This document shows, piece by piece, positions 4,794-47,768 of a stretch of 47,855 bases of DNA. This DNA comes from an uncultured Bdellovibrionales bacterium (lineage in GTDB: Bacteria; Bdellovibrionota; Bdellovibrionia; Bdellovibrionales; UBA1609). The stretch's first letter is position 1. The number at the start of each line of letters is the position of its first letter. The stretch is from NCBI GenBank assembly GCA_937936325.1, contig CALGWV010000031.1, positions 1-47,855 of the forward strand. Reading direction: 5' to 3'. Below the pieces are notes generated by a model. It was not told the DNA's origin and searched no databases. It saw nothing but the letters and a program-made list of their open reading frames with translations. A program made the position numbers and the translations under genes.

Positions 4794-4849
4794 TTAAGTA
4801 CCTTAACAAAGAAATTATAAGGCTTTTGTAGTTTTTAATAAAGATTATT

Positions 4850-11889: not shown

Positions 11890-11967
11890 GAAAACAGTAT
11901 ACACGTGGAGATTGAGAAACTTAAGTCTCGCCTGCACCGAATAGAGCTGTACCCAATGGCTAGAGTT

Positions 11968-12138: not shown

Positions 12139-12249
12139 AACTCCTTCAAAAAAGGAGGCAAAATCCCCGTACAGAATAGAATATTTACATAGCTTGTGGA
12201 TTCCATTAGTATTCAGTAAAAAATTAGGAAATTAAGGATACTGGTTGTT

Positions 12250-13179: not shown

Positions 13180-13235
13180 TGTTTTTTTAAGGCTGTTGAC
13201 AAACTTCGGAGCTACGGGCAGTGTTGTCTTTCAGG

Positions 13236-13312
<77 letters not shown>

Positions 13313-32759: not shown

Positions 32760-33143
32760 CTTAATTGGCTATCACCAAATTAAATTTAAGGACCGTTCAT
32801 AAATGATGCAACATGCTTCAGATCAGAATTTGCTTCATAAGCATATGATATTATATCTCTTGTACCACCCATTTATTAGGCCTTAGCAGCTATAACAAAT
32901 TTTTCTATATAAAATTTTCACGAAAATAAAGATAAAAACTTTTCTTGTTTATTTCCCACTGAATTATGGATAGCGTCATGTGAGCCGTACCAAGATTGGG
33001 ACGTAGGGGCAGAAATTAATAATCATCAGTGAATTCAACATGCTAACCGCCAAAAAGTTATAAAAAGCACACGTGCTGTCCCAAGGCTGGAACGAGAAGA
33101 AAAAGGGGCAAGCTACTACAATCATTAATTTTTTAAAAAATTC

Positions 33144-33159
33144 GTCCCAAACGTGGGAC
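33144..33159. promoter_or_regulatory. Perfect palindrome GTCCCA-AACG-TGGGAC (candidate enhancer/UAS)
   Basis: Exact 6+4+6 inverted repeat about 50 bp upstream of the -24 element. Related half-sites lie at 32997-33002 and 33078-33083. Confidence 0.55.
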
Positions 33160-33208
33160 AAAAAATAAAAATTAGAACGCTAAGCTCGTGTTTATTGACG
33201 TTAGAAGC

Positions 33209-33223
33209 TGGCATCAGTCTTGC
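33209..33223 (+). promoter_or_regulatory. Sigma-54 (-24/-12) promoter
   Basis: TGGCAT-CAGTC-TTGC has exact consensus spacing (GG and GC 10 nt apart). It lies directly upstream of the operon, whose first gene is itself a sigma-54 activator. Confidence 0.7.
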
Positions 33224-33258
33224 CTATAGAGGGAGTGAGTATGATTGAAGGGGAACAA

Positions 33259-34698
33259 ATGAATTACAATATCCTTATAGCAGATGATGAAGAGCATATC
33301 TTATTAGACTACGAATCCAAGCTCGTTCGTCACTTAGACATAAACACAACTTTTGTAAGCTCCCCTGAAGAAGTAATAGAAATTTATAATAAAAATATAG
33401 ATAAGTATGCTGTGGTAGTTCTCGATTATAATTATCGTGACTCGAACTTAAATGGGGCATCTCTTGCAAAAAAAATCAAAGCAGTTAACCCTAAACAAGC
33501 AATACTCATTTGCTCTGGCCTAAATGATCAAGACCCTGCAATTGAAAGCTTCAAAGCTGGCGCAGTCGATTTTATAAAGAAAGGCTGCGACGTTAGCGAT
33601 ATTGTTGAAAAAATTCGAAGTCACTTCAAAAAATATGATGAAACGAGACGGGTTCTTGATTTTAATACATCTAAAAAAGCAAGGCTAACTAAAAACTCAA
33701 ACTTAATCTCAAAAATTGGCTTAGTGGGACAGTCGGACTCATTAGCTGAAGTCGCAAAGCAAATTGGAATTATAAGTGATTACGGATCTAATTCAACCGT
33801 CTTGATAAGAGGTGAATCAGGTACAGGAAAGGAGTTACTTGCAAAAGCTGTACATAAGTTTTCTTCTAGAAGCAATAAAATGTTCCTACCAATTAATTGT
33901 GGTGCAATACCTAAAGACCTTCTTGAAAGTGAACTTTTTGGTCATGAGAAAGGATCTTTTACTGGGGCAGTTACAAAAAAAATTGGAAAATTTCAACTAG
34001 CAAACGGTGGCACAATTTTTCTTGATGAAATTGGCGATCTTGATAGGCAGTTACAAGTTAAGTTACTGCGAGTCTTGCAGGAAGGAACAATAGAGCCTAT
34101 TGGCTCTAATAGCTCAATGACGGTAGATGTAAAAATAATTGCGGCTACACACGTCAATCTTGAAGATGCAATTGAGAGAGGAGACTTCCGAGAAGATCTT
34201 TATTATAGGTTAAATGTAATACCTCTCACCGTTGCTCCTTTGAGGCAAAGGTTAGAGGATATTGAGCCTCTAGTACTACACTTCATGGAGAAGCACCCGA
34301 ACGGAAAAGATAAAAAGTTCTTATACAAAACTATTCAATATCTTAAATCGTATCCTTGGAGAGGAAATGTAAGAGAACTAGAAAATATCGTAAACGGATT
34401 GCTAACAATGACTCTTAGTAATGAAATAAGACCGGAGCACCTGAGCGAAGATTTTTTTGTTACTGATGATGTGCAATTTGAAGATTTTAAAGGGAGCTTC
34501 GAAGAACTCAAAATCAGACTCCAAGACTACAGTGACAAGGTCCAAAAAGACTATATTTTAAAGAAGATTAGAAACCTGCCTACTCCGCTTTCATTCAGAA
34601 CTGCCGCGGAAAAAATAAATATTTCAAAGAGTTCCTTGAAAAGAAAACTCGACTCATGGGGATATTCATCAAAAGAGGTTTTTAACGATGGCAATTAG
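33259..34698 (+). CDS. NtrC-family sigma-54-dependent response regulator (REC + AAA+ + Fis-type HTH)
   Basis: REC domain (NILIADDEE...VVLDYNY). Walker A GESGTGKE, GAFTGA-type loop EKGSFTGA, Walker B IFLDEIG, R-finger region. C-terminal HTH (FRTAAEKINISKSSLKRKL). Start chosen at MNYNILI (33259) because the ATG at 33241 would leave almost no leader after the predicted promoter. 33241 remains possible. Confidence 0.9.
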   Translation: MNYNILIADDEEHILLDYESKLVRHLDINTTFVSSPEEVIEIYNKNIDKYAVVVLDYNYRDSNLNGASLAKKIKAVNPKQAILICSGLNDQDPAIESFKAGAVDFIKKGCDVSDIVEKIRSHFKKYDETRRVLDFNTSKKARLTKNSNLISKIGLVGQSDSLAEVAKQIGIISDYGSNSTVLIRGESGTGKELLAKAVHKFSSRSNKMFLPINCGAIPKDLLESELFGHEKGSFTGAVTKKIGKFQLANGGTIFLDEIGDLDRQLQVKLLRVLQEGTIEPIGSNSSMTVDVKIIAATHVNLEDAIERGDFREDLYYRLNVIPLTVAPLRQRLEDIEPLVLHFMEKHPNGKDKKFLYKTIQYLKSYPWRGNVRELENIVNGLLTMTLSNEIRPEHLSEDFFVTDDVQFEDFKGSFEELKIRLQDYSDKVQKDYILKKIRNLPTPLSFRTAAEKINISKSSLKRKLDSWGYSSKEVFNDGN

Positions 34699-35773
34699 TT
34701 CAATCAAAAATTTTCTGATAACTCAACTCTTGAAAACTGTTAGAAGTCAGAATTTTTTGTCTATTCAACTCGATATTACAAATGCATGTAATCTAAACTG
34801 CTCGCATTGTTATCACTCCCATCACAAAAATAAGGGGGCGATAAATCTAAGTCAGTGGAAAGAGATTATTGATCAGTATGATTTGCTGTTGCAAAAACTT
34901 ATCCTGAAGCCAAGGATAGTTATCTGTGGTGGGGAACCCTTGGTAAGCCCTATGCTTTTACCTTTAATCGAGTATATTAACCATAAGTGGCCAAAAACAG
35001 AAATTTCAATATTAACTAATGGAACAACTATAAATCGTAAATTATTAGAAAAACTAATTGATTATAATGTTGAATTTCAAGTTTCTATTGATGGCCCAGA
35101 TTCAAATAGACATGATGAAATCAGAGGAGCAGGAAATTTCCTAAAAGCATTATCTGGTATAAAGTTATCCCAACAATATGGAATTAGAGTTGCAGTCCTC
35201 ACCGTTCTATCTAAAAAAACATCATTTTGGATATATGATTTCTTTGATTTAGCTAAAACCATTGGCGTATGTTCAATGAATTTTACTAGATTCATTCCCC
35301 AAGGTAATGGGTATAAGCTGGTTGAAAATGGTTTAGATCGTGCTTTAACTGCTTTTGAGCTGAAAGAGTCATTTACGAAAATTTATGAAACTGGAAAATT
35401 ATTAAAAGTTAAGACAGGAACAAATCAGCCTTTATTTCATTTAGTAGATAGCTCTTTAGGTTCCAATGGAAATTTTGGTTTTCAAGGAATTGTAGTTGAT
35501 TATAAGGGAAATTTTAAAATCTCAAGTAGAGCTGATTACATAATTGGAAATATACTAGAAACAGGGCTTGAAAACTTATTTTTGAAAAATCCAATCATGA
35601 AAGAGCTTAGAAAAGGCAATATAGAAAAATGTGGATCATGTGTTCACTACTCAAGATGTGGTGGAGATAGAAATATAAGTTTCGCAGAAACTGGAAGTTT
35701 TTTAAAAGCCGACAGTGGTTGTTGGTTTAATTTAGAGAGTACATCTATAGACCTAGGAGGGAAGGTTATATGA
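34688..35773 (+). CDS. Radical SAM enzyme with a C-terminal SPASM/twitch-type Cys cluster (peptide/protein maturase class)
   Basis: CNLNCSHCY (CxxxCxxC), GGEPL and NGT motifs. C-terminal CGSCVHYSRCGG...SGCW. Overlaps the regulator gene by 11 nt. Confidence 0.85.
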   Translation: MAISSIKNFLITQLLKTVRSQNFLSIQLDITNACNLNCSHCYHSHHKNKGAINLSQWKEIIDQYDLLLQKLILKPRIVICGGEPLVSPMLLPLIEYINHKWPKTEISILTNGTTINRKLLEKLIDYNVEFQVSIDGPDSNRHDEIRGAGNFLKALSGIKLSQQYGIRVAVLTVLSKKTSFWIYDFFDLAKTIGVCSMNFTRFIPQGNGYKLVENGLDRALTAFELKESFTKIYETGKLLKVKTGTNQPLFHLVDSSLGSNGNFGFQGIVVDYKGNFKISSRADYIIGNILETGLENLFLKNPIMKELRKGNIEKCGSCVHYSRCGGDRNISFAETGSFLKADSGCWFNLESTSIDLGGKVI

Positions 35774-36111
35774 AAAATTTAAGAAAAGTGTATTTGATTT
35801 TATTATCAATTCTACCAATTTCATCAGTTTCATTTGCTGCTGAATTTGAAAGACAAATTGGAAATGCCTATAATGAGGCTGAATTCGATTTTTCAGGAGA
35901 GATGTTGAGAAAGCTAGAAGCTGAAAGTGATCAAGATATGAGTCCATATTATGAGTTTATGGATAAATACGAGATTGAAAGTCTAGAAACCTTAAAAACG
36001 AGAGAGTATAAACCACACTTAAACAGAATGCTTAAGTTCTACGTTGATGAAAAATTTGGAAATAACTCAAGTGTAGCAGCATCTCTAAGTCAAATTACTG
36101 GAGAGCACTAA
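35770..36111 (+). CDS. Small acidic exported protein of unknown function (113 aa)
   Basis: ATGA overlap with the radical SAM stop. GGAGG RBS. Signal peptide MKNLRKVYLILLSILPISSVSFA. The mature part is rich in Glu/Asp/Tyr/Phe. Confidence 0.7.
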   Translation: MKNLRKVYLILLSILPISSVSFAAEFERQIGNAYNEAEFDFSGEMLRKLEAESDQDMSPYYEFMDKYEIESLETLKTREYKPHLNRMLKFYVDEKFGNNSSVAASLSQITGEH

Positions 36112-36114
36112 ATA

Positions 36115-37641
36115 ATGAAAAAGATAGCATTAGCTCTTACTGGAGCATTTCTCATCACGGTGACATATATGACAATCCAAAATAATAAAGAAACTAAAAC
36201 AGTATTAAATGTTGGTTTTCCTGGATATTGGAAAGACTTGATTCCAGCACTACAACATACAGCATTAGCTGATGCTATTCTACATAACCAATTTGAAGCA
36301 CTTGTTGGAGGCGGTCATGGTGGTGCAATTGTTCCTCATGCGGCAAAGTCATGGAAAATTAGTGAAGATAAGAAAGTGATTGTATTTAAAATAGATACGT
36401 CTAAAAAATTTTCCAATGGGAAAAAATTAAAGGCTAAGCATTTTAAGGAATCTTGGGAGCATGGCTTATCATTGGAATCAAAATCAGCGAATAGTAGTTT
36501 ACAAGACGTTATTTACAAAATTGTCGGTTATCAAGATTTTAAAAATACGGGAAAGCTTTCAGGCGTGTCGGCTCCAGATGATGAAACTCTTATTGTAGAA
36601 TTTGAAAAACCTTTCAGAATGGGTCTTGCACACTTGATGGGTGCAAGAATGGCCGCATTTATTATCGAAGACGGAAAATATCTTGGCACAGGCCCGTATA
36701 TTATCCATGACTCAACTGAAAAAAAAGTACATTTAACCAAAAATCCATTTAACAAATCAGATGCTTATTTCGAAAGAATTAATATTGAAGTTGTTCCTTC
36801 TAGTGAGGCTGAAAGCGCTCTTCAAAGTGGGAAAATTGATTTATATGCATTTGCCGAAATTACTAAATTAAAAGATTGCTTCTTAGAAAATAAAAAAACA
36901 GGTTGCCAGTCTGGTATGGAAAGCAGACATATGACTCTAAATGTTAATGGCAAAAAAGGAAGGTTTTTTAGTAATCCCAACTACAGAAAAGCTCTTCAGT
37001 ATCTTCTACATCAGGGGATAGAAGATTCTTTTCCGAACGAAGAAAAGTTCAAGACTAAGGTAGATCCTCAAATATACCTACCCTTGCAATCTGGACGAAT
37101 TGAAAGTGACAGAGCAAATGAAATAATTGAAGATGGAAAAAAATACGTAGATGATTTTATTAAGGCTACTGAAAAAAATCCGTTATTTTTCGCAACTTTT
37201 AATAAACATTCATGGATTAAAGGTATTCTCGAAAATAAAGGGGTTAAACTTTCACAAGAGTCTGTCAAAATTAAAGGCTCTCGTGTTTTAGAAATGTTTT
37301 ATAAAACCCACGAGCCTGACTTGTTATTTACTTTTGCTAGCGTTGCAAGTGGAGATCCAGATGGAATCTATCACGTGCTTGGAAAACACGGCTCTATTTC
37401 ATCGCCTATGATACAACGAAGTAAGGTAGCGGAAATTCTTGAAAGTGGTCGGAGTATAACTGATCCAAGTGAAGTGAACCGTCACTATAAAAAAGTGAGT
37501 GAAGTCGTTTTAGAAGAAGTTCCTTTTGTACATCTTGGCTTTTTAAAGACTGTTGTCGTTTTTAGAAAAGACAGAATTAATGTAAGAAAGAAGTTTGTTG
37601 AACGATCAGACAATCAATTTACAGCATATGAAGCCTTGTGA
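36115..37641 (+). CDS. Family-5 (peptide/nickel type) solute-binding protein, orphan (no ABC permease/ATPase nearby)
   Basis: 508 aa with an N-terminal signal anchor. The length and N-terminal region (LNVGFPGYWKDLIPALQHT...LVGG...AKSWKISEDKK) resemble SBP_bac_5. Starts 3 nt after the previous stop. Confidence 0.7.
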   Translation: MKKIALALTGAFLITVTYMTIQNNKETKTVLNVGFPGYWKDLIPALQHTALADAILHNQFEALVGGGHGGAIVPHAAKSWKISEDKKVIVFKIDTSKKFSNGKKLKAKHFKESWEHGLSLESKSANSSLQDVIYKIVGYQDFKNTGKLSGVSAPDDETLIVEFEKPFRMGLAHLMGARMAAFIIEDGKYLGTGPYIIHDSTEKKVHLTKNPFNKSDAYFERINIEVVPSSEAESALQSGKIDLYAFAEITKLKDCFLENKKTGCQSGMESRHMTLNVNGKKGRFFSNPNYRKALQYLLHQGIEDSFPNEEKFKTKVDPQIYLPLQSGRIESDRANEIIEDGKKYVDDFIKATEKNPLFFATFNKHSWIKGILENKGVKLSQESVKIKGSRVLEMFYKTHEPDLLFTFASVASGDPDGIYHVLGKHGSISSPMIQRSKVAEILESGRSITDPSEVNRHYKKVSEVVLEEVPFVHLGFLKTVVVFRKDRINVRKKFVERSDNQFTAYEAL

Positions 37642-39320
37642 AAGATGAACAGATGATAAGCCTTAATAAATGGTTTGCTAGAAATGCTAGATACCCATTA
37701 ATTTTATCATCTGTCTTTATAGCGATAGTCACAATTGTTTTTATCTCAACAGCTTTTATTAAGAAAGAACGAAACCAAATAAGTGTTATAAAACAACTTA
37801 CTCAAAGTATTTTTGCAGTTGCTATTACACAAAACAACAGACCATTGTTGGAGTCTGCTTTTACTGTTGCTGCCGAAGACCTTGGAGTTAACGTTATTAT
37901 ACTTTGTAACAATGATGAAGAAATGCTTTCAATTCCCTTCTCTATAGAAAGCTGCAAAAAGCTACCCAAAGCAAAAATCACAGAGAAGTTTGTAACATTT
38001 CAGCCTTCGGGATTTTCATCGTACAGAGTATATGCATATATAGACAGGTTGCACAATTCTTGGTCATTGATATATACTGCTGCTTTCACGTTTTTCTTCT
38101 TAATAATAACATTCTTACTAACTTATCGAGTCCAATGGATTTTTGATAAGGAAATAATTTCTCCAATTGCAAATCAATTGTTATCAGAAAAAGAAATTAA
38201 AATTTTAGAGATAAACGATTTGCGAAAAAACTTAAAACAAAAAGAGATGCTGATGGAAAAGGAATTATCTGCCAGCTCAGCCATTGCGCACAAAAAAAGT
38301 TTAGCTCATAATATAAAATCCAAAATTCATACATTAAGGAGTGTTCACAGTGAAATCAACAAACTAATTCCTGAAAGAAGTAACAAAACACTTTCTAGTT
38401 TAATCAAGTCCTTCACAACTATGCATAATAATCTCAACGATATAGTTCAGAAAGAAGTAGAGGATATTCCATTATCAAAAGAATCATTCGATGAAACTAT
38501 TTCTCTTGTTAATAGAAATAGGTCTTTCGTTAATATTATAGAGGTACTAAATTCTTGCATTGAACACAAAAAAAGCGAATTTAAAAAAATTAAAATTCAC
38601 TTTGATCTAACACCTAATCTTTTAGTTTTTTCAAAAATTTCAGAGTTGCAATTTAGACACATAATTTCGAACTTAATTAATAATTCAATCGAAGCAAATG
38701 CCTTAGAAATAAATTTTGAAATAAAGATAGATTCAGAAATAATTATTAGAGTAATAGATAATGGAAACGGGATTGCGCCTGACGTGATAGACAGCTTGTT
38801 TGAAAAAGACATAACTGCTGGGAAAATAGGTGGAACTGGATTTGGCTTATTTCATGCTAAAAGATTTTTAGAGTCCTGGAATGGAACCATCAAAGTGCTT
38901 AAAACAGATAATGCAGGATCAACATTTGAGCTTAGCTTGCCTAAATGGGAGCCTCAGAGAATAGAAATACCATTAAACTCGAAAGTATCAATTCTTGATG
39001 ACGACCCAAATGTACATGAAAACTGGGAAAACTTATTGGGTAAAAGAAAAGATGTCACAATAACTAAGTTTAATAATACAAATGATTTTGAAAGATGGAT
39101 TGATGAAGACGTTACTGACTATTCAAATCTACTCTGCTTCATAGATAATGACTTAGGCGAAAAGACTACTGGATCTGAATTAATAGTCTCTCTTGGTATA
39201 CAAAATATTTGCTCTTTGGTAAGTAACAGTTTCGATGACCCAGTAGTTGTTAGTCGTTGCGAAAGTAGCAACATTCCAATAATTCCAAAAATAGCTTTAG
39301 AAAAATACATTTCAATCTGA
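37638..39320 (+). CDS. Hybrid sensor histidine kinase (2 TM + periplasmic loop + HisKA-like + HATPase_c + C-terminal receiver)
   Basis: GTGA overlap with the SBP stop (alternative ATG at 37653). H-box-like LAHNIKSKIHTL, N box SNLINNSIEAN, G1 DNGNGI, G2 GGTGFGL. Receiver-like tail (VSILDDDP...CFIDNDLG). Confidence 0.8.
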   Translation: MKDEQMISLNKWFARNARYPLILSSVFIAIVTIVFISTAFIKKERNQISVIKQLTQSIFAVAITQNNRPLLESAFTVAAEDLGVNVIILCNNDEEMLSIPFSIESCKKLPKAKITEKFVTFQPSGFSSYRVYAYIDRLHNSWSLIYTAAFTFFFLIITFLLTYRVQWIFDKEIISPIANQLLSEKEIKILEINDLRKNLKQKEMLMEKELSASSAIAHKKSLAHNIKSKIHTLRSVHSEINKLIPERSNKTLSSLIKSFTTMHNNLNDIVQKEVEDIPLSKESFDETISLVNRNRSFVNIIEVLNSCIEHKKSEFKKIKIHFDLTPNLLVFSKISELQFRHIISNLINNSIEANALEINFEIKIDSEIIIRVIDNGNGIAPDVIDSLFEKDITAGKIGGTGFGLFHAKRFLESWNGTIKVLKTDNAGSTFELSLPKWEPQRIEIPLNSKVSILDDDPNVHENWENLLGKRKDVTITKFNNTNDFERWIDEDVTDYSNLLCFIDNDLGEKTTGSELIVSLGIQNICSLVSNSFDDPVVVSRCESSNIPIIPKIALEKYISI

Positions 39321-39368
39321 TTTATTTTTATTCACTCAAAACTCTTTAATTCTTTCCTCTTTAAACAT

Positions 39369-39461
39369 TGTCCCAAGGCTGGTTTTCGTGTTTCAGGCGC
39401 GGGACACCAAAAAATATAACTATTCCAATGAGTTATAAAAACTTGTTCCAGTCATGGGACG
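39369..39461. promoter_or_regulatory. Second cluster of GTCCCA/TGGGAC motifs (candidate enhancer sites)
   Basis: TGTCCCAAGGCTGG (39369-39382) is identical to 33077-33090. CGGGAC lies at 39400-39405 and CCAGTCATGGGACG at 39448-39461. Confidence 0.5.
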
Positions 39462-39523
39462 TTTTATAACTTTCAAAATTTTATAAAAACTAAAATAACC
39501 AATGTTATCAGTAGCTTAGCTGT

Positions 39524-39538
39524 TGGCACATGCCTTGT
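39524..39538 (+). promoter_or_regulatory. Sigma-54-like promoter (imperfect -12)
   Basis: TGGCAC-ATGCC-TTGT has a perfect -24 element and correct spacing, but the -12 reads GT instead of GC. It sits about 57 nt before the ATG at 39595. Confidence 0.5.
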
Positions 39539-39594
39539 AATAGTAAGTCATGAAATCAAACAGTCAAGTTTGGTTTTTTAAAAAGGGAGAGGAA

Positions 39595-39882
39595 ATGAAA
39601 AGCCTATTTTTACTTACAGTTCTAGTACAAGGCACAAACAGTTTTGCATTTGAAGCAAATCTTAAAGGCTCAGAGACGCTCACTACTAAAGAGATCGTTG
39701 AATCAGGAGCAACGTCAGTTTCATGCAAAGACAGCAAGCCTACCTGTGTTCTCCAAGGTGACGTTTACGGCATACATTATGCCGGACAAGAGTTTAAAGA
39801 CATAGTTTGGATTGAAAAACCACTCGGTTCAACGACTAGAGAGGCATTAAAACAACTTAAAGCGGATGGCTTTTGTAACTAA
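39595..39882 (+). CDS. Small secreted protein of unknown function
   Basis: Start moved to MKSLFLLTVLVQGTNSFA (GGGAGAGG RBS). 95 aa with three Cys. Confidence 0.55.
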   Translation: MKSLFLLTVLVQGTNSFAFEANLKGSETLTTKEIVESGATSVSCKDSKPTCVLQGDVYGIHYAGQEFKDIVWIEKPLGSTTREALKQLKADGFCN

Positions 39883-39904
39883 CTAAAAATAATTGGGAGA
39901 AAAT

Positions 39905-40147
39905 ATGAATTTACTAAAAATAGCATCATCACAGCCAGACTGTCCTTTTGATTGCTCTAACCTAGATAAGTACATTTCAAGTGATGAGCTTTGGAGTTTC
40001 ATCAATGAAAACGTCAATAGATTGGTTCGTAAAGTACCAAAAAGTGAAGAGATAGAAAGATCGCTTTGGGAGATTAAAAAAGAGTTAAATTTTATTTTCT
40101 CCCAATATTCAATCGTAGAGATTAACAACTCACAGGAGATTAAATAA
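39905..40147 (+). CDS. Hypothetical small cytoplasmic protein
   Basis: ATG at 39905 with a GGGAGA RBS. Its stop abuts the next start (TAATG junction at 40145-40149). Confidence 0.5.
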   Translation: MNLLKIASSQPDCPFDCSNLDKYISSDELWSFINENVNRLVRKVPKSEEIERSLWEIKKELNFIFSQYSIVEINNSQEIK

Positions 40148-40338
40148 TGACACCAAAACTTATTAAAGAAATGACTGAACTACTAGAGAAAATCGAAGAT
40201 CAAAATCTTCACCATAGGGATTCAGAGACTCATGAAAGTTTTACCCTCTTAGATAAACTGATTTGCGAGATCAATGACTTTTGGGACGGCTTTAGAGAGC
40301 CGCGCTATGTAGAAAAATATGAACAACTGGTTTCTTAA
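40147..40338 (+). CDS. Hypothetical small acidic protein
   Basis: 63-aa ORF, translationally coupled upstream. Confidence 0.45.
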   Translation: MTPKLIKEMTELLEKIEDQNLHHRDSETHESFTLLDKLICEINDFWDGFREPRYVEKYEQLVS

Positions 40339-40347
40339 GGGGGAACG

Positions 40348-40581
40348 ATGAATAAGTTTAACAAACGAAAATTTGAAAAAGAAGAAATTGAAAGATTTGC
40401 CAACAAGTTGGTGGAAGTTTTTAAAAATCATTATGGGATTGATATTACTTATGGAAATTTGAACTTTGTCTACCACCAAGGGGTCTGTAAAAGTGTAACT
40501 CTTGAATCAAGAAATCGAATTTGTAATTTCAGAGAATCAGTAGACAAGCCCGTAATTAAGTTTGCAAAGAAGGTGTCATGA
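40348..40581 (+). CDS. Hypothetical small basic protein
   Basis: GGGGGA RBS. ATGA overlap with the following large gene. Confidence 0.5.
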   Translation: MNKFNKRKFEKEEIERFANKLVEVFKNHYGIDITYGNLNFVYHQGVCKSVTLESRNRICNFRESVDKPVIKFAKKVS

Positions 40582-43500
40582 ATACAGATAAAGACATAAG
40601 TCTTCCAATCGCACTATTGCTTTTCGGAGCAATAGTCGCTGTTTTCTTAGGACTGCACTTTAAAGCAGATATTTACGGGATCTTAGAGATTTCAGATATT
40701 TTGTATAAGGAGTACAGAACCTATATTCTAATTTTCTTAAGTATCATATTTTTAAACACGATCATATCGTCTTTATATTTAAGAAGGCTTCTGGGCCTCT
40801 CTAAACAAGGGGCAAGATTAAACTCGATTAGACCTAATGGAGCCAGTGTATCTCAACGAGGGATAATTTTTCTAGTAACTCTTCTGACCTCAATTCTAAT
40901 GATGACTTTGGTTAGTGATCAATTCATCCCAAAATTTCCAGAAGCGATTGGGGCTTTAGAGATTTTCAAATGGCAATCGTTTTTCTTCAAGTTCAACTTA
41001 GGACTTTTTGCTGCATTTGTATTTTACAGAATAATAGGATTTCTAAAGGTTGATGATCTTTTTTCATCAAGAGTTAAAATTAAAAGATTCCCTAAGGCCA
41101 AGAGTCAAATCACTCTAGGCACATCCCCAGCAGATAAGAAAGAAAAATGGGTCAGTTTAGATAGAAAGGCCTTAAACGGTTCAATATTAATCACCGGCTC
41201 AATTGGCTCGGGTAAAACTGCTGGTGCCATGCTCCCGTACTTTAAACAAGTACTCACTAATTTTGATCGAAAATCTATTTTAGCAATTGATCCTAAAAGA
41301 ACTTTCGTTGATGAAGCACAAAATCTTATAGACCAGTACAATCCAGAATCTATTGTAAGAAGAATAACTCTCGGTGGAACCGAAAAATACAATCCAATTT
41401 ATCTGAATAAGGTTCTTAAAAATACAAGATTTCTGGTTGTCACAAAGATGTTGATGCAAAGTGCTGCTAACTTTTCAAATGATGGGAGCAAAAATTCTTT
41501 TTGGGATCAAAGTGCGTTCAACCTTGTCAAAAATTCTTTGATCTACTGTGCGGCAATGAGCGAGTACTATACTCTCAATGAGCTATACAGTGCTTTAATT
41601 AGGGCCACAACTGTAGACCTCGCTGATGACTTAGAAAAAATGCTTTTAACTAAAAAGAGTGATTCTAAATTTGATGAAGAGGAACTCTTTAACATCAATT
41701 GCGCCATAAATTACTTTAAGCTTGAATTTAAATGCTATGACCAGAAAATAAAAACTAGTGTTTTGGCCACAGCAACAAGTTTTCTAAATCAGTTTCAAGA
41801 ATACCAAGCTTCACAGATCTTTTGCCCTCCTAAGGATGAACGAACCATATTGAGCATTGATGAGGTTGTGGACAAGGGAGAAATCATTCTATTTGATGTA
41901 GATAACCCTGCTTTAGCTAAATCAATGGGAACAATTATAAAGCTTCAATACGAAGATTCAATTTTAACCAGAGTTGCTGATAAAAAACGAGGTAAAGAAG
42001 TTCCGGCCTTTCTCATAATAGATGAGGCACAAGACGTTGTGAGTTCTGCTGGAGGTGATGGGCTTGGAGATGACAGATTCTTAGCTAAGTGTCGTGAAGC
42101 AAATGCCATTTGTATTATGGCCTCTCAAAGTTATTCATCTATTCAAAGTACATTTAAAAGTGAGGTGGCAACAAGAGAGCTTGTTCAAAACTTTAGAACA
42201 AGAATCGCTTTTCACTCCGCAGATGAGAAAACCATAAACAATTACAAAGAATTAGTAGGCCAATCTGAAAGTGAAAAGAAATCTCACAGCATTTCAGAGA
42301 TAGCCCAAAAAACAGAGAAAAACTATTTACTAGGAGGTTTTGATTCAAAAGACGCAAATATCAGTGAGTCGATTAACATCAGCACACAAAAAGAATGGGA
42401 TATTACAGGAAGAGAGTTCACAAGCTTAGGAACTTTTGAAGCTTGGGGGCTAGTTTATAATGGGAAAAGGACAGAGCTTAAGAAGCTCTATATGAAACCA
42501 AACTTTCTTGAAAGGCCCGAGACTGTCCATAGCAAGGTTCTAGATTCATTGTCACCAGAGGCAACTGGTCTACTTAGGAAGTCAGTGAGGTGGATTCTCG
42601 GAGCTTTAACAGGCCTTGCAATAACATCTTCGGCAAATGCTTTTCCATCTATTTGCTCAGTGATTAATCAGCCTAGCTTTAGGTCCTGCTTTTCTTTTAA
42701 CGTAAGTCCAACGATGTGTGGAAGTTTCCCGCCAAGGCCATGTGCGAGACTTAGCTATTATGTGCCTCAAACTTTCATTGAAACGACCAGCAGCAAAGGA
42801 CTTTCTCACTTCTCATCTCTTCCCATAGCAGCGGCCCAGTTAGCGGGAGTCATCAAGAAAAAGCCTTACGGGGCCGTGAATGATGATGACACTCAGTCAT
42901 TTCAGGCAAGGACAATTGCAGTCCCGCTAACGCAAATGGCTTTTTCAGGGATGCCTTGTGGCGGGGCAAGGCAAGAAAAAATGTGTTTCGATGGCATGAG
43001 CGAACACATAGACACTCACTGGTCTACGGGCAAAGGCGATCTCTTGCAGCCTGCTTTTCTAGCATGGAAAGTTAGTCCAAAGCTCTGCCTCTTGAAAGGG
43101 GCCGCCACCTCCGTGGTAGGCGGCCCCACTGGGGTTGTAGGAGCTGGATCACCTAGTTGCAGTATGCCGTTTCAAACCCTTCCAGTATTTCCTCCATCGG
43201 GTATGCCAGTATGTACAGGCTGGGGTGTGATGTTTCCAAGATACGGAACAACTGTTGGCGGCTCAGAGGTAATGGGCTCACTTAATATAGCGAGCAGAAT
43301 TAAAAGTCTCTCTGTTGAGGTTTTTAAAAATATGCCTGCTGGCTTTGATGAAAAATGGTCTATGCTCTCACCAAATTCAAGTCAGTGCTTCAGAGAATTT
43401 GAAAACATGGGAAAGCTTGAAACATTCAACCTCGTGAATAACCGAGGAAGAACTATCGGAAAAGATTTACGTGGAAACTTATTCACCACATGGAAGAGAG

Positions 43501-43586
43501 TCAGTTGCACAAGAGATTGGGCGGCAGTTCCTTTTTATAAAGCTCAAGTCGAGCTTTTAAGTGCAATATGTAAGGGGCTTAACTAA
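40578..43586 (+). CDS. Type IV coupling-protein-like ATPase (TraD/VirD4-like) continuous in frame with a TraU-like periplasmic domain
   Basis: N-terminal TM helices, Walker A GSIGSGKTAG and Walker B FLIIDEAQD. Then an internal signal-peptide-like segment RWILGALTGLAITSSANA. The Cys-rich C-terminal 330 aa is collinear with my recollection of F TraU (MFPRYGTT..SEVMGSL / MYPFNGWV..SSPLQSS; SQCFREF / GQCHPFG; TTWKRVSC / LMWRKRNC). Confidence 0.6.
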   Translation: MNTDKDISLPIALLLFGAIVAVFLGLHFKADIYGILEISDILYKEYRTYILIFLSIIFLNTIISSLYLRRLLGLSKQGARLNSIRPNGASVSQRGIIFLVTLLTSILMMTLVSDQFIPKFPEAIGALEIFKWQSFFFKFNLGLFAAFVFYRIIGFLKVDDLFSSRVKIKRFPKAKSQITLGTSPADKKEKWVSLDRKALNGSILITGSIGSGKTAGAMLPYFKQVLTNFDRKSILAIDPKRTFVDEAQNLIDQYNPESIVRRITLGGTEKYNPIYLNKVLKNTRFLVVTKMLMQSAANFSNDGSKNSFWDQSAFNLVKNSLIYCAAMSEYYTLNELYSALIRATTVDLADDLEKMLLTKKSDSKFDEEELFNINCAINYFKLEFKCYDQKIKTSVLATATSFLNQFQEYQASQIFCPPKDERTILSIDEVVDKGEIILFDVDNPALAKSMGTIIKLQYEDSILTRVADKKRGKEVPAFLIIDEAQDVVSSAGGDGLGDDRFLAKCREANAICIMASQSYSSIQSTFKSEVATRELVQNFRTRIAFHSADEKTINNYKELVGQSESEKKSHSISEIAQKTEKNYLLGGFDSKDANISESINISTQKEWDITGREFTSLGTFEAWGLVYNGKRTELKKLYMKPNFLERPETVHSKVLDSLSPEATGLLRKSVRWILGALTGLAITSSANAFPSICSVINQPSFRSCFSFNVSPTMCGSFPPRPCARLSYYVPQTFIETTSSKGLSHFSSLPIAAAQLAGVIKKKPYGAVNDDDTQSFQARTIAVPLTQMAFSGMPCGGARQEKMCFDGMSEHIDTHWSTGKGDLLQPAFLAWKVSPKLCLLKGAATSVVGGPTGVVGAGSPSCSMPFQTLPVFPPSGMPVCTGWGVMFPRYGTTVGGSEVMGSLNIASRIKSLSVEVFKNMPAGFDEKWSMLSPNSSQCFREFENMGKLETFNLVNNRGRTIGKDLRGNLFTTWKRVSCTRDWAAVPFYKAQVELLSAICKGLN

Positions 43587-44755
43587 TGGCAATAAAAGTA
43601 ATAAATGGTCTAACAACAACCTACACACTTTCTTCTGAGGAGAAACTTGAAAGCAGTGGAACTTATACAGGGCTTATAAGAGACTCAATTGATGAGGCGA
43701 TAAGATTGAACGCCAGTGACATTCATTTTGAACCTACAGAAAAAGGTTTTGTAATTCGGCACCGTATTTGTGGAAATCTTAAACTATTTTTTAATTTAGA
43801 AGAATCTAAAGATATTAAAATGCCGCCGGAGATTTTAAAAAATGGAATCACTACAACATTAAAATCTATTTCAAATATACCACTTGGAAGACAAAACGTT
43901 GCTCAAGACAGTGGAGTCAGTTTACCTAAACGAGGAGTAGACATTAGAGTTAACAAAATGCCGACCATTTATGGTGAAAAGTTTGTTTACCGCCTCTTTG
44001 ATAAAAATCAATCAACTGATCTAACCAAAATTGGCCTAACTCCTCAATCACTAAAGGACGTTATTGCAGCAACGAACAAGAAATCAGGACTGATTATTAT
44101 TACTAGTGAAACAGGAAGTGGTAAAACTTCTACAATTTATTCAATGATTGAGGCCATTGATAGGGGTTCACTAAATGTTTCAACTTTAGAAAATCCAGTT
44201 GAAAGAAACTTAAAAGGTGTGAATCACACAGCAGTAAATGACTCCTTCAGTTTTGCTGATGGGCTTAGAGCATTGATGAGGCAAGACCCAGATGTCATCG
44301 TTGTTGGAGAAATTAGAGATGAAGTGACCGCTAAACTTGCTGTAAGGGCAGCATCTACAGGGCACTTAGTTATCTCAACCATGCACACCAACACTGCTCT
44401 AAATATTCCTATGGTTTTTGAATACTATGGTGCTGACAAATTACAGATGATGAGATCGTTAATTTTAGGTGCGAATCAAAGACTAGTAAAAAGAATATGT
44501 CAAAACTGTGCATTATCTACCGAGAATGGATTCAAGAGAGCAAATGAAAAAGGATGTAGGCAATGTTTTTCTGGTTTTGAAAACAAAAGAGAGCTTCTCT
44601 TTGAATATTTCACAAGCGAGCAAATCAAAGAAAATATGGAATTGGGACTTAAGGTTTCAATGAATGAAATTTTTAACAATCTAGCAAAAAAAGGAGTCAT
44701 TGATGAACGTGAAATCTATCGTCAAGGTAGTTTGTTTAATTCAGACAGTGCTTAG
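43586..44755 (+). CDS. PilB/GspE-family secretion ATPase (short form, ATPase domain plus tetracysteine C-terminus)
   Basis: ASDIHFEP, Walker A SETGSGKTST, Asp box/Walker B LRALMRQDPDVIVVGEIRD, His box GHLVISTMHTN, CQNC...CRQC. TAATG overlap with the upstream gene. Confidence 0.8.
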   Translation: MAIKVINGLTTTYTLSSEEKLESSGTYTGLIRDSIDEAIRLNASDIHFEPTEKGFVIRHRICGNLKLFFNLEESKDIKMPPEILKNGITTTLKSISNIPLGRQNVAQDSGVSLPKRGVDIRVNKMPTIYGEKFVYRLFDKNQSTDLTKIGLTPQSLKDVIAATNKKSGLIIITSETGSGKTSTIYSMIEAIDRGSLNVSTLENPVERNLKGVNHTAVNDSFSFADGLRALMRQDPDVIVVGEIRDEVTAKLAVRAASTGHLVISTMHTNTALNIPMVFEYYGADKLQMMRSLILGANQRLVKRICQNCALSTENGFKRANEKGCRQCFSGFENKRELLFEYFTSEQIKENMELGLKVSMNEIFNNLAKKGVIDEREIYRQGSLFNSDSA

Positions 44756-45460
44756 TTTAAATCAAGCACTGGCAATTGATTTTTATAACGAGGGAATAGA
44801 CTACTGGCCTGAAGAAAAAAAGAAATAGCAGATACCACCAACAAAGGCTCTGCTAAAAAAATGCCAGACAAGTCTAAGAAAAAGTTTTCTTGGAAAGAAC
44901 ATTTAAACCCAAACAATGAGGAATTTTATAAAGAAGGAAACCATAGGCCACCAGCTCCATTTGTAGAGGTGGCAAAAAATCCTACAGATAAAAATATCTC
45001 AATGTGGCTTAAGTATCTTGAGATGAAAAATAAATTAGCATCAAGACTACAGAATAGAATTTCTGAGTACGTGCAAAAAAACAACAAAGTACCTATAGAG
45101 GTCAACTTAAAGGAGGTAAAGAAAGTAAATATTAAAAACGCAGGAAGGTTTAAGATCAGAATGTACTTTGAATCGACTTGTCCACACTGCAAGAGGATGA
45201 TGGCAACCCTAAACCAATTGCAAAATGAAGGATACTACGTTGAAGCTTTACAGCTAAACAAAGGCCCACTACTCAGGGCCAGTTATCCTTTAAGGTTAAG
45301 TAGTGCAAAAGCTGGTGATGCAACAAAACACAAAATAACAAGTGTTCCGTTTACATTAATAGCTGATCTTAAAAATAAAGTGATTTCAAAGCCGATTACT
45401 GGTTTTCAATCACCGGAACAAATTAAAAATATACTTCTTCTAATGGAGAAGAAAAACTAA
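44703..45460 (+). CDS. TraF/TrbB-like periplasmic thioredoxin-fold protein, split into two frames at a poly-A tract
   Basis: Frame 0 (44703-44825) encodes a signal peptide plus DFYNEGIDYWPEE, comparable to the GWQWYNE motif of F TraF. Frame -1 (open from 44813; annotated ORF 44861-45460) encodes the body with CPHC and a C-terminus collinear with TraF. The frames switch at A AAA AAG. Confidence 0.6.
44816..44822 (+). promoter_or_regulatory. Candidate -1 frameshift site A AAA AAG
   Basis: The heptamer is in the correct zero-frame phase (GAA AAA AAG). A TAG stop lies one codon (3 nt) downstream of the heptamer. The inverted repeat TAGCAG (44826-44831) / CTGCTA (44850-44855) follows. Confidence 0.4.
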
Positions 45461-45519
45461 ACAATAGCAAATCTCTACTACCACAAAAGCGAGCGAGCTA
45501 AAAAACACTAGGAGTTAAG

Positions 45520-45915
45520 ATGAATAGCATCTTATTGCACTCCCGTGGTTCGCTGAATGTACTCTACGAGCTGTGGGATAAACATAAACATTGGTTGATT
45601 ATTCTTGGAGCACTCTTGCTTCCACTACTTGTCATTGTAGCGGAGACGCACGCACAGGTAAAAATTCCAGGCCAAGATCAGTCTCAGAAATTGCAAGCAG
45701 CCGGAACACTGCTGCGTTTGATAGACACTGCTCTTTTTGTATGGCTTGCAAGAATTTTTGCAGGGCTATGTATCTTAAGTGCAGGCTGGCTCATTAAAGA
45801 ACAAAAATTCGGCCCTGCCGTAGTTTGCGTCTTAGGAGCTTTAATAATCGGAACCTCACCATTGTGGGTGATTAATATATTTGAAGTCGGCGGTGGCGGC
45901 GGTGTCTTTAGATAA
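45520..45915 (+). CDS. Conjugative-type (TraA/VirB2/TrbC-like) propilin
   Basis: Long leader ending AETHA|Q. The mature part has two hydrophobic helices separated by the basic loop KEQKFG. Gly5 C-terminal tail. It sits immediately upstream of TraL/TraE/TraK-like genes, the F-type order. Confidence 0.6.
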   Translation: MNSILLHSRGSLNVLYELWDKHKHWLIILGALLLPLLVIVAETHAQVKIPGQDQSQKLQAAGTLLRLIDTALFVWLARIFAGLCILSAGWLIKEQKFGPAVVCVLGALIIGTSPLWVINIFEVGGGGGVFR

Positions 45916-45929
45916 GGGAGGTATTAGAT

Positions 45930-46241
45930 ATGTATGATTATGATGAATTAAGAAAAACCCATCAAACCAAGATTAGTCAAACTCTAGACTCACCAATCAT
46001 GTTCGCTGATTTGTGGGAACTTAGAGACATTTTATTAAGTTTGATTTCAATTCTTGTATTCGGACTTATTTTCTACTCTTGGAAACTGTTAATTCTTTCG
46101 TTGATTTGGACTCTTTTAATAAATCCAAGGATTAAAAGAAATAACAACAGAGGGATTCTAATTCATTGGCCATACAAAATTTTTGGAATGGGCCTTAGAG
46201 GGTTAATGAACCCCAAAGGAAACAAACGGTATTCAGATTAA
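45930..46241 (+). CDS. traL: TraL-like type-F pilus assembly protein
   Basis: 103 aa. TLDSPIMFADLWELRDI followed by one long TM region, then NRGILIHWPYKIFGM, matching my recollection of the TraL family pattern. Confidence 0.6.
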   Translation: MYDYDELRKTHQTKISQTLDSPIMFADLWELRDILLSLISILVFGLIFYSWKLLILSLIWTLLINPRIKRNNNRGILIHWPYKIFGMGLRGLMNPKGNKRYSD

Positions 46242-46252
46242 GGAGAAAAATT

Positions 46253-46489
46253 ATGAGTAATTCAAATGATTCAAAAAATGAAACGAAAGGGAGAGATTTT
46301 TATGACCACAAACCTATTAGAGAATTTAAAGCGAGTATTTCTAAAAACGGAAAATTCTGGCTCTTTAAAGACATCACAACCCATATTGTCCCGAGGAAGT
46401 ATGTATCTAAAATTGATATGGACTTCAATCAAGAGCAAGTTGCTGATTCTAGCAGTGGCGATCAAAAGGCTGAACAACGAAATGCTTAG
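46253..46489 (+). CDS. Hypothetical small protein
   Basis: Strong AGGAG RBS 8 nt upstream. Its stop overlaps the next start (ATGCTTAG). Preferred over the competing long ORF that starts at 46266. Confidence 0.5.
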   Translation: MSNSNDSKNETKGRDFYDHKPIREFKASISKNGKFWLFKDITTHIVPRKYVSKIDMDFNQEQVADSSSGDQKAEQRNA

Positions 46490-47171
46490 TTCAATTGATA
46501 AGGGGGTTAAAGCGGCTGAAATCAGTCGCCCCCCTGCTGGAGTTTATGGTGATGTTGATCTCAGGGTGCTACCAAAATATATCAGCTATAAGGCATCAAA
46601 CTTAAGGGAGAAAACAAATCTTCATTTCGTGATGGGGCTTATGCTTTTAGCATGGATCTCAACTTTCGTTATTCAAAATAATAGAGTTGAGTATTGGCAG
46701 ACAAAATTTAGAGAAAAAGAGTTTATTCTTGTTCCATCTAAGATTGTCGGTCACACTCCCGCTACCCCACAATCAGTTCCAGACTCTTATGTGAAATTTG
46801 CTGTTAAGTCATTTATTCAAATGTCAGGTACAACAACGCCAAGTGGAATCAGGGATCAGCTAGAACGCTTTGCTGGCTATATGGAGAAAAAGCTTGGGTC
46901 TCGGTACTTAGCTGATATGGAGGAATGGATTGAGCTTTCTGAAAAGAAAGGACTCTATGAACAAGTTGAACATACCAATCTTAAATTTGCCTATCATAAA
47001 AAAAGTGGCGTCATTGATGTTGATGTTGTCTTAAGACGAGATCGAAGAGAGAACGCTGATTTTCTAGGAACGGCAATGGAAAAAATGAAGATGACCCTAC
47101 TTGTACAGCAACCCAAACCGGATCAAGAGTGGACGTTTAAGATCGTTAAATATTCACGAAAACCAATGTAG
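46482..47171 (+). CDS. traE: TraE-like type-F pilus assembly protein
   Basis: Single N-terminal TM (LHFVMGLMLLAWISTFVIQ) followed by a periplasmic domain. Position between the TraL-like and TraK-like genes. Start chosen at the ATG at 46482. Confidence 0.55.
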   Translation: MLSSIDKGVKAAEISRPPAGVYGDVDLRVLPKYISYKASNLREKTNLHFVMGLMLLAWISTFVIQNNRVEYWQTKFREKEFILVPSKIVGHTPATPQSVPDSYVKFAVKSFIQMSGTTTPSGIRDQLERFAGYMEKKLGSRYLADMEEWIELSEKKGLYEQVEHTNLKFAYHKKSGVIDVDVVLRRDRRENADFLGTAMEKMKMTLLVQQPKPDQEWTFKIVKYSRKPM

Positions 47172-47180
47172 AGGAGAAAC

Positions 47181-47768
47181 ATGAGATATTTTTATTTATT
47201 ATTTTATATGGCATTTTCTGTAAATGCGTTTGCAGAAGAAACTAAAGAAGTCTTTTTTGGAACATCAACTGAAACCATTACGATTCCATTTGGAGAGCCA
47301 ACGGTTTTAAAGTTTGAAAAGCGTATTAAAAGGTACAGTAATTCTTCAAGTTATATCATTAATCCTGAAGATGAGCTAAACCCCGATTATACTACTTTGA
47401 GTGTTGTTCCAAAATTCACTAAAGGAAGTGAGAAGATCACTTTCATTTTAGAAAACGAGAAAATCGCAAGGATCAGGTTTAAAACAGAGTTCAATGAAGA
47501 AAAAGAGTTTAAAGAACTCACATTTGAACTTCGAGCTAAATCACACCTTGATAAGTCAAAGGCCCCTCCCATTGGTGAGGTAGAATTATTAAAAGCGATG
47601 GTTGGAGACAATGAAGTTGCAGGGTTTTCTAGAAAAGTAGTTTCTAAAACTCTCAGATCGGGTCAAAAAGGCGTATCAAAGAAGCTTGTAAGGATCTATG
47701 AGGGAAGAAATATGAATGGGTATGTTTTTAAGCTCACAAGTCATTTGTACAGAAATAAGAGCCTGTAA
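47181..47768 (+). CDS. traK: TraK-like (secretin-like) T4SS protein, probably C-terminally short
   Basis: Signal peptide. KITFILENEKI parallels PFTFILETERG of F TraK. 195 aa versus about 240 aa for F TraK. Confidence 0.5.
   Translation: MRYFYLLFYMAFSVNAFAEETKEVFFGTSTETITIPFGEPTVLKFEKRIKRYSNSSSYIINPEDELNPDYTTLSVVPKFTKGSEKITFILENEKIARIRFKTEFNEEKEFKELTFELRAKSHLDKSKAPPIGEVELLKAMVGDNEVAGFSRKVVSKTLRSGQKGVSKKLVRIYEGRNMNGYVFKLTSHLYRNKSL

Follow-up and report, generated by a model that had tools for sequence, protein, structure and literature searches.

Does the sensor and activator operon at 33.2-39.3 kb of a Bdellovibrionales contig control the secretion genes that begin directly behind it? The contig (CALGWV010000031.1 of assembly GCA_937936325.1, from an uncultured bacterium) was analysed over its full length of 47,855 bp, which is the whole contig record and is called the window below; its G+C content is 37.7%. 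A five-gene cassette headed by the gene for an NtrC-family response regulator (33241-34698) is followed from 39595 by an F-like type IV secretion system (T4SS) operon, and a sequence-only reading had proposed that the first controls the second. That proposal is supported in silico by the domains of the activator, by a family of palindromic sites and their layout, by covariation between sites and activator, and by the linkage of the two gene sets. We consider it likely that 39369-39539 is a sigma-54-dependent control region of the T4SS operon with three predicted sites for this activator, and judge from the same data that the sensor cassette very probably switches the secretion or transfer machinery on.

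Palindromic sites upstream of both operons

The two intergenic regions concerned (region A, upstream of the activator operon, and region B, upstream of the T4SS operon) had been connected through a repeated 14-mer, and the repeat was borne out: TGTCCCAAGGCTGG at 39369-39382 is matched by TGTCCCAAGGCTGG at 33077-33090, the identity extending over exactly 14 nt. By number alone such repeats are ordinary. The window contains 14 distinct exact direct 14-mer repeats against 11.3 +/- 3.7 in simulated windows, and repeat counting was dropped as evidence because this total is at chance. Only G+C-rich repeats and the placement are unusual; repeats with at least 9 of 14 positions G or C appear in only 1.5% of simulated windows, and a 14-mer common to both intergenic regions arose in 3 of 3000 simulations. 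Taken alone, the 14-mer repeat and the sigma-54-like match are each at chance level in the window, and the case for a predicted control region draws its significance from comparative data rather than from either motif.

The 14-mer comprises the left half, the spacer and three right-half bases of an 18-bp palindrome, TGTCCCA-N4-TGGGACA, and it is this palindrome rather than the 14-mer that is the predicted functional unit. Members of the palindrome family are present within the window only in the two intergenic regions. A weight matrix built solely from 12 sites at two loci of another genome (L006 and L008, about 45% protein identity to the window) placed all five of its best window matches in regions A and B, at 39389 (23.2 bits), 33143 (23.1 bits), 39444 (21.9 bits), 33077 (20.6 bits) and 32986 (11.8 bits), with the next-best match in the window at 8.2 bits. 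The first four exceed the highest score found in 200 simulated windows, 18.7 bits.

Region B contains three sites followed by a promoter-like element. Site B1 (39369-39386, TGTCCCAAGGCTGGTTTT) holds the 14-mer and has a strong left half-site and a degenerate right half, a design and position shared with TGTCCCACGACTGAAACA in L008, TGTCCCATTCGTGAAAAA in L006 and TGTCCCACTTGTGAAACG in a further related locus, L061. Site B2 (39389-39406, TGTTTCAGGCGCGGGACA), the best match in the window, starts 20 bp after B1, and site B3 (39444-39461, TGTTCCAGTCATGGGACG) starts 55 bp after B2, with the -24 element 80 bp further on. Two TGGGAC-type half-sites had been described here; the one at 39455-39460 does read TGGGAC, whereas 39400-39405 reads CGGGAC, with C at the first base. 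A terminator scan flagged B3 as a weak hairpin with a T-run, and a terminator function was rejected because relatives lack the T-run. Between B3 and the promoter lies a conserved A/T-rich ATCA block (39505-39519, + strand), a possible IHF-type bending site.

The putative sigma-54 promoter of the T4SS operon, P_B (39524-39539, + strand), reads TGGCAC-N5-TTGTA. Its core, TGGCACATGCCTTGT at 39524-39538 (TGGCAC-N5-TTGT), has the features that had been ascribed to it, namely a perfect -24 element, consensus spacing and GT rather than GC at -12. The GG of the -24 element lies within TGGCAC at 39524-39529, three sites are located 63-155 bp upstream, and an activator gene is present at 33241-34698.

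Region A follows a similar plan. Site A1 (32986-33003, CGTACCAAGATTGGGACG) is distal and the weakest of its sites, and its position matches that of the first of three sites in L006, L008, L061 and a fourth relative, L062. Site A2 (33077-33094, TGTCCCAAGGCTGGAACG) holds the second copy of the 14-mer, and site A3 (33143-33160, CGTCCCAAACGTGGGACA) is a near-perfect palindrome 66 bp upstream of the -24 element of P_A (33209-33224, + strand; TGGCAT-N5-TTGCC), a sigma-54-type promoter before the activator operon whose core is TGGCATCAGTCTTGC at 33209-33223 (TGGCAT-N5-TTGC). P_A would give positive autoregulation of the activator operon.

The protein predicted to read these sites is a bacterial enhancer-binding protein encoded on the + strand (33241-34698; Pfam Sigma54_activat, 1.4e-68; Response_reg, 4e-13). 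It consists of a REC domain, an AAA+ sigma-54 interaction domain with a GSFTGA loop, AAA_lid_14 and a C-terminal helix-turn-helix that includes INISKSSLKRKL. Alignment shows the conserved aspartate of the receiver domain in VLDY, GSFTGA as a variant of the GAFTGA loop, and the helix-turn-helix. Its best NCBIfam match is ntrC at 332 bits, below the cut-off of 558, and it belongs to no named equivalog (NtrC, LuxO, AtoC, ZraR, PrsR), all NCBIfam matches lying under the curated cut-offs.

Conserved layout and covariation with the activator

Related loci were collected with the cassette's solute-binding protein as seed, which gave 53 loci in genomes of Bdellovibrionota, Oligoflexia and Elusimicrobia; other assemblies supplied three closer relatives, and a metagenome scan with an alignment of the T4SS coupling protein returned six loci, two of them informative for the upstream region. 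L008 and L006 derive from the same metagenome-assembled genome of a member of the Bdellovibrionaceae. Region A of L008 contains three perfect TGTCCCA-N4-TGGGACA palindromes and, 67 bp later, TGGCACAGTGCTTGCG; 3' of its kinase gene follow TGTCCCAcgacTGAAACA, CGTTTCAtccgTGGGACA and CGTTTCActcgTGGGACA, then TGGCACTCTACTCGCA, then the T4SS genes. The region A plan of three sites followed by a promoter is repeated in the relatives. The distance from the last site to TGGCA is 65-68 bp in the window, L006, L008, L025, L002, L061 and L062, and GGCA and TTGC are invariant in a five-locus alignment.

The layout of region B is equally constant across five loci. Sites 1, 2 and 3 and TGGCAC begin at 39369, 39389, 39444 and 39524 in the window, at 13250, 13270, 13326 and 13395 in L008, at 14238, 14258, 14313 and 14380 in L006, at 14104, 14124, 14181 and 14260 in L061, and at 13379, 13399, about 13452 and 13542 in L062. 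In each, the left half of site 1 is strong and its right half weak; site 2, exactly 20 bp downstream as B2 is from B1, has the opposite pattern, and site 3 follows some 53-57 bp past site 2. The A/T-rich block with its invariant T-C-A beside an A-rich run comes next, TTGGCAC stands 67-90 bp past site 3, and beyond the promoter comes the first gene with its Shine-Dalgarno sequence. Only the sites, the TCA block and the promoter are conserved in the five-way alignment; the sequence between these blocks is not. In L006, L008, L061 and L062 the three-site and promoter layout precedes both operons.

The same comparison carries the promoter assignment. With a matrix built from 15 related sigma-54 promoters, the element at 39524 is the best match in the window at 16.2 bits, where the maximum in simulated windows averages 14.4 with a 95th percentile of 18.5, and the consensus pattern occurs 5 times in the window against 1.9 expected. 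Significance by score was rejected because the value falls within the simulated range; the significance of P_B comes from its conserved position, TTGGCAC being invariant and positionally conserved in the alignment of the window with L006, L008, L061 and L062.

Several observations weigh against the role proposed for this segment. Site B1, the 14-mer copy, fits one half-site only. The -12 element of P_B is TTGTA where GC (TTGCW) would be expected, though the spacing is correct, and the related T4SS promoters are off-consensus there as well (TCGCA, TGGCA, TGGCT, TTGAA, TTGTC). With the conserved C missing and the relatives deviating too, this element could be weak or non-functional. The score of P_B lies inside the chance range for a 47.8-kb window. 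No rpoN is recognisable in the 47,855-bp contig, and sigma-54 in this organism is implied by the activator only. The terminator scan showed no clear terminator past the kinase gene, and part of the T4SS expression could therefore come from transcripts that start at P_A and read through. About one-third of the close cassette relatives (L003, L004, L010 and L045) have unrelated neighbours, with no T4SS inside 10 kb; regulating a T4SS is thus not the cassette's exclusive role, and the linkage is frequent rather than obligatory.

Three of these points, the GT at -12, the chance-level score and the lack of a convincing terminator between the kinase gene and 39595, would also suit a different account, in which the enhancer sites are real and TGGCAC-N5-TTGT is not a working promoter. 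Transcription of the T4SS genes would in that case start at a sigma-70 promoter or reach them by read-through from the cassette operon, and the region B sites would serve some other end, such as looping or activator retention. In five loci, TTGGCAC is nevertheless invariant and keeps its place with respect to both site 3 and the first gene, it recurs in two loci found through the coupling protein (L058 and L059), and no sigma-70-like match is present on the + strand within 39321-39594. In L061, moreover, a TIR gene of opposite orientation stands between cassette and T4SS operon and speaks against read-through as a general route. On these grounds we regard a non-working P_B as unlikely, though it is the main alternative.

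That region B is read by the product of 33241-34698 is supported by covariation. The half-site sequence varies between lineages, yet the two regions shift jointly, and in step with the recognition helix of the neighbouring activator. GTCCC half-sites in the window, L006, L008 and L061 accompany an activator helix of the form [IM]SK[ST][STV]L. GACCC half-sites, found in both regions of L002 and in region A of L003, L004 and L063, accompany [IM]P[NK][ST]SLQ, and the GGCCG/GTCCG half-sites of both regions of L062 accompany IPKSSLQD. Half-sites in L025 are mixed in both regions. This joint variation is the strongest argument that the adjacent activator, and not another protein, would read both regions.

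Binding by a different regulator, either a paralogous enhancer-binding protein or a small protein from the head of the T4SS operon, was weighed against the same data. In its favour, several cassette paralogues can share one genome, as L006 and L008 do with the same half-site; in all three classes the half-site nevertheless goes with the recognition helix of the activator next to it, and the sites also stand in front of the activator's own gene, at a constant distance of 65-68 bp from its sigma-54 promoter. Another regulator is, in our estimate, quite improbable. The idea that specificity classes are orthogonal within a genome was also considered and is not supported, because L006 and L008, from the same assembly, both carry GTCCC. 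A separate observation concerns L063 (Logan ERR9287621), which comes from the same sample as contig L001, itself identical to 30.7-39.2 kb of the window. Its cassette is a second, paralogous one: the binding proteins are 50% identical, the sites are of the GACC type and the recognition helix is of the PN type, and the organism or its community may hold cassettes of two specificity classes.

The resemblance among the sites might instead be fortuitous, the 14-mers being chance repeats or remnants of attachment sites left by recombination. Repeated 14-mers as a whole are at chance level, G+C drops past the tRNA-Met gene of the window (13236-13312), and TTTCAGGCGCGGGA at 39391-39404, inside B2, recurs at 13229-13242, where it covers 7 nt upstream and the first 7 nt of that gene and so spans its 5' end; G+C-rich repeats such as TTTCAGGCGCGGGA are expected in about 1.5% of windows. 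An independent matrix and a conserved architecture exclude chance, however, and the tRNA-like 14-mer is site B2, whose GTTTCA-N4-yGGGACA form persists in genomes without a nearby tRNA gene. No tRNA body follows 39404, and no direct-repeat arrangement gives a consistent integration model. We regard the explanation as highly improbable, and for the site family a chance or attachment-site origin is effectively excluded. A tRNA attachment site at 39391-39404 was likewise rejected, as no integration geometry fits and the sequence is that of a conserved site; the coincidence is left unexplained.

Control of the T4SS operon by the cassette is further favoured by their linkage. Region B stays with the T4SS operon even where a gene has been inserted after the kinase gene, a 263-aa open reading frame (ORF) in L006 and the inverted TIR gene in L061. 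In ten independent loci found via the binding protein, that is, without reference to the T4SS, the cassette adjoins an F-like T4SS: in tandem with the T4SS downstream in L002, L006, L008, L025, L061 and L062, and divergently with the T4SS upstream in L007, L018, L019 and L028. Two more distant relatives found via the coupling protein also have a TGGCAC promoter before the T4SS operon and an activator gene next to it. In L058 the cassette is divergent, its radical-SAM gene is replaced by an unrelated gene, and TGGCACCCCGCTTGAA stands 70 bp upstream of the first gene of the T4SS; in L059 the activator gene is divergent and TGGCACAGAAATTGTC is present.

The surroundings of the cassettes yielded several further observations. 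No integrase or relaxase gene was found next to the cassettes in L006, L008, L018 and L025, whose neighbours include genes for UvrB, a dehydrogenase, an OLD-type nuclease, a reverse transcriptase and an MFS transporter. Defence-type genes repeatedly adjoin cassettes and encode TIR-domain proteins, a caspase-like peptidase, an OLD-family nuclease and a reverse transcriptase (L061, 13278-14003; L063, 1-791; L010, 16576-19083; L025, 4838-6631; L008, 485-1537), which is consistent with a mobile-element or defence-island setting. In the promoter region of two relatives with a TraC-type T4SS, at 14671-14700 of L025 and 16456-16485 of L002, a conserved overlapping pair TGGCAC-N4-GGTCC-N8-GCT occurs; either GG could be the -24 element, and only the second gives GG-N10-GC spacing.

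Gene content of the cassette, the secretion operon and the window

The cassette is more than a two-component system, as it adds a radical-SAM/SPASM enzyme, a small secreted protein and a family-5 binding protein, all encoded on the + strand. None of its five proteins reaches the cut-off of a named NCBIfam equivalog. The radical SAM/SPASM-type enzyme (34688-35773; Pfam Radical_SAM, 2.3e-22) resembles many SPASM peptide maturases, every match being below cut-off, and its gene is conserved in the cassette. The periplasmic solute-binding protein (36115-37641; Pfam SBP_bac_5, 2.1e-33), of the peptide/nickel type, has 544 homologues, mostly in Bdellovibrionota, Oligoflexia and Elusimicrobia, and is a probable co-sensor of the kinase. 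The membrane histidine kinase (37638-39320; Pfam HATPase_c, 9.6e-19) has two transmembrane segments around a loop of about 100 aa, the HATPase_c domain and a C-terminal receiver-like tail, and its homologue in L058 gives a faint Response_reg match.

Between the enzyme and the binding protein, the gene at 35770-36111 encodes a small secreted protein of 113 aa with a signal-peptide-like N-terminus and no family match. An equivalent ORF occupies this position in most loci, with a conserved N-terminus and a variable, Ser/Gly-rich C-terminal tail, and its product is a candidate radical-SAM substrate or a candidate signal. The N-terminus (LLAILPIxSVSFAA) is unusually conserved from Bdellovibrionota to Elusimicrobia, as seen in 35770-36111 and in ORFs of L002-L044. 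Tails rich in Ser and Gly, such as SGAISIGGT and GGGGWG, complete a pattern like the leader and core of a modified peptide.

The T4SS operon (39595-47768, + strand) runs on past the contig end. The genes between these positions, previously counted as 13, are indeed co-oriented and tightly packed; 11 ORFs of at least 60 aa lie there, and 12-13 are reached only with the small genes called in relatives. Four small ORFs form the head of the operon from 39595. They are followed, all on the + strand, by genes for a TraD-like (TraD/TrwB-type) coupling protein with a Cys-rich C-terminal extension (40578-43586), a PilB/GspE-like ATPase (43586-44755), a TrbB/TraF-like thioredoxin (44861-45460), a 131-aa ORF product (45520-45915), TraL (45930-46241; E 1e-4, below cut-off), a 78-aa product of the kind of small gene called in relatives (46253-46489), TraE (ending at 47171; E 1e-4, below cut-off) and a 195-aa ORF product (47181-47768). 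TraK and TraV were not recognised, and the window ends ahead of the position of TraB and TraC.

Gene order in the operon is conserved in L006, L008, L055-L058, L061 and L062, and syntenic relatives continue with an F-type TraB (E 4.5e-33) and a TraC of the F type (E 3e-29), both below equivalog cut-offs. Because of this continuation the apparatus is best read as an F-like T4SS and not as a type IV pilus. The T4SS/pilus-like label given earlier is accordingly retained for the T4SS with its coupling protein, and its pilus half is dropped in view of the TraD-like protein, TraL and TraE here and TraB and TraC in relatives. A coupling protein is present, but the available sequence showed neither a relaxase nor an integrase, so that a conjugative role is something we infer. 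A search of a plasmid collection with the coupling protein gave only remote matches, at 23-29% identity, and no close plasmid relative. The C-terminal extension of the coupling protein spans about 330 aa and includes conserved motifs such as EKMCFDGMSEH and FPRYGT; it matches no Pfam or NCBIfam family, but L006, L008 and other relatives conserve it strongly. The L062 coupling protein has 741 aa, and a separate 280-aa gene precedes its gene.

Farther afield, an Rfam scan of the window found a tRNA alone, the tRNA-Met gene at 13236-13312. G+C is about 0.40-0.44 before this gene and about 0.31-0.40 after it (13313-47855). The sensor cassette and the T4SS lie in this second part, together with a HigB/Gp49-like toxin gene and two genes each for RND efflux pumps and cation-diffusion transporters. 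The segment looks like a genomic island that begins at the tRNA gene, with no integrase seen and its right end beyond the contig; integrase genes were absent among the scanned ORFs next to tRNA-Met, a scan that did not take in every ORF of 13.3-33 kb. Just past the tRNA-Met terminator and upstream of a 146-aa ORF at 13608, the segment 13444-13545 contains AGGTCAC(T/A)GT twice (13444 and 13454), (A)AGTGGTTCC(TC) direct repeats at 13474, 13498 and 13527, and GGTTCC near 13488; these repeats might be bound by an island-end protein. Between the divergent genes for an ABC-transporter ATPase (10999-11973, minus strand) and a rhodanese-domain protein (12250-13179) sits a perfect inverted repeat of about 43 bp (11963-12005 and 12101-12143, arms about 95 bp apart), which overlaps the start of the ATPase gene. 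The 19-mer TAGGGGCTGTGGAAGATTC occurs as a direct repeat at 1393-1411 and 4849-4867, flanking a 919-aa ORF (1735-4494, minus strand), with a partial inverted copy at 4932-4945.

A proposed circuit and its known counterparts

The sequences themselves show the anatomy of the two regions, its conservation and its covariation; activator binding, sigma-54 dependence, an order of activation and the nature of the signal are what we infer. A periplasmic ligand would be sensed by the family-5 binding protein together with the membrane kinase, the kinase would phosphorylate the receiver domain of the activator, and the activator would oligomerise on the palindromic sites. Sigma-54 holoenzyme would be remodelled first at P_A, with its near-perfect palindromes and near-consensus promoter, giving autoregulation; P_B, with half-degenerate sites and an off-consensus -12 element, would be reached at a higher level of activator and would turn the T4SS on. 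Because site degeneracy is combined with an off-consensus -12 in every locus (TTGT, TCGC, TGGC, TTGA), P_B would need more active activator, which suggests a hierarchy of feedback first and machinery second.

The pattern of the 113-aa protein, the radical-SAM/SPASM enzyme and the peptide-type binding protein together suggest a modified secreted peptide as the signal, which is speculation. Carried further, the five-gene cassette could be a self-contained peptide-pheromone circuit on T4SS islands of the Bdellovibrionota: a radical-SAM-modified small protein would be exported and sensed by the binding protein and the kinase, and the activator would fire the feedback promoter and then, above a threshold, the conjugative T4SS operon. 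We put this version forward tentatively and on balance doubt it. If it were true, the joint divergence of helix and half-site (GTCCC, GACCC, GGCCG) could keep the circuits of different elements from cross-talk.

The controls known for conjugative elements are SOS-type repressors, LuxR/acyl-homoserine lactone systems, Rap/Phr or PrgX peptide systems, and two-component activators acting with sigma-70, such as VirG. No precedent was found in the literature for a conjugation-type T4SS operon under a sigma-54 promoter with a dedicated enhancer-binding protein. Neither conjugation nor T4SS nor Bdellovibrio is mentioned in a 2025 survey of sigma-54 regulons across phyla (PMC12316311), and in a review of integrative and conjugative elements 'two-component' is absent and the sole 'RpoN' stands in a reference title (PMC5812530). 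Here the whole circuit is readable from sequence, including the sensor, the activator, the predicted binding sites and both promoters, and it is conserved across the Bdellovibrionota, which are mostly predatory and largely uncultured and whose horizontal transfer is poorly understood. The defined 18-bp sites with their three natural specificity classes offer a handle on when these bacteria deploy T4SS machinery and on whether a radical-SAM-modified peptide is the trigger.

Among known systems, PilS/PilR control of the type IV pilin gene pilA, which encodes part of a surface filament, resembles the present circuit in its two-component sigma-54 activator and tandem upstream sites, pilA being among the sigma-54-enriched functions (PMC12316311). 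The PilB/GspE-like ATPase is the sole part of the machinery shared in kind, and the downstream genes here, which include those for a TraD-like coupling protein, TraL and TraE (with TraB and TraC in relatives), are not those of a type IV pilus system. Pheromone control in PrgZ/PrgX of the Enterococcus plasmid pCF10 and in RapI/PhrI of ICEBs1, the latter summarised in PMC5812530, is similar in that a secreted peptide switches conjugation and an OppA-type family-5 binding protein aids recognition, the peptide signal here being hypothetical. Those systems import the peptide and use cytoplasmic repressors or anti-repressors, whereas the present circuit would combine periplasmic sensing by a kinase with a sigma-54 output.

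Vibrio LuxP/LuxQ-LuxO shares the route from a periplasmic binding protein through a membrane (hybrid) kinase to an NtrC-type sigma-54 activator, and LuxO is among the NCBIfam matches of the activator (288 bits, below the cut-off of 800). In contrast to that system, there is no LuxU or Qrr small RNA logic here, and the output is a structural operon directly downstream. In Agrobacterium, VirA/VirG with ChvE exerts binding-protein-assisted two-component control over the adjacent virB T4SS of Ti plasmids and is autoregulated. The likeness lies in a binding-protein-assisted two-component system adjoining a T4SS operon. VirG is an OmpR-family protein that acts at sigma-70 promoters with vir boxes, whereas an AAA+ sigma-54 activator is encoded here; the T4SS is F-like (TraL/E/B/C) rather than VirB-like, and the binding protein belongs to family 5, while ChvE binds sugar.

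Enteric NtrB/NtrC uses tandem palindromes about 70-150 bp upstream of a -24/-12 promoter, activates its own and target operons, and ranks them by site strength. The present circuit resembles NtrBC-glnAp2 and the glnALG autoregulatory loop in this enhancer logic, in the predicted activation of its own and a target operon, and in the domains of the activator. It differs in the ntrC score (332 against the cut-off of 558), in a site, TGTCCCA-N4-TGGGACA, that is not the NtrC site, in a target that is a T4SS rather than nitrogen assimilation, and in an input through a solute-binding protein and a membrane kinase. With equivalog scores below cut-off, a different site sequence and an F-like T4SS, we conclude that the circuit belongs to none of the NtrBC, VirA/VirG/ChvE and LuxPQ-LuxO systems.

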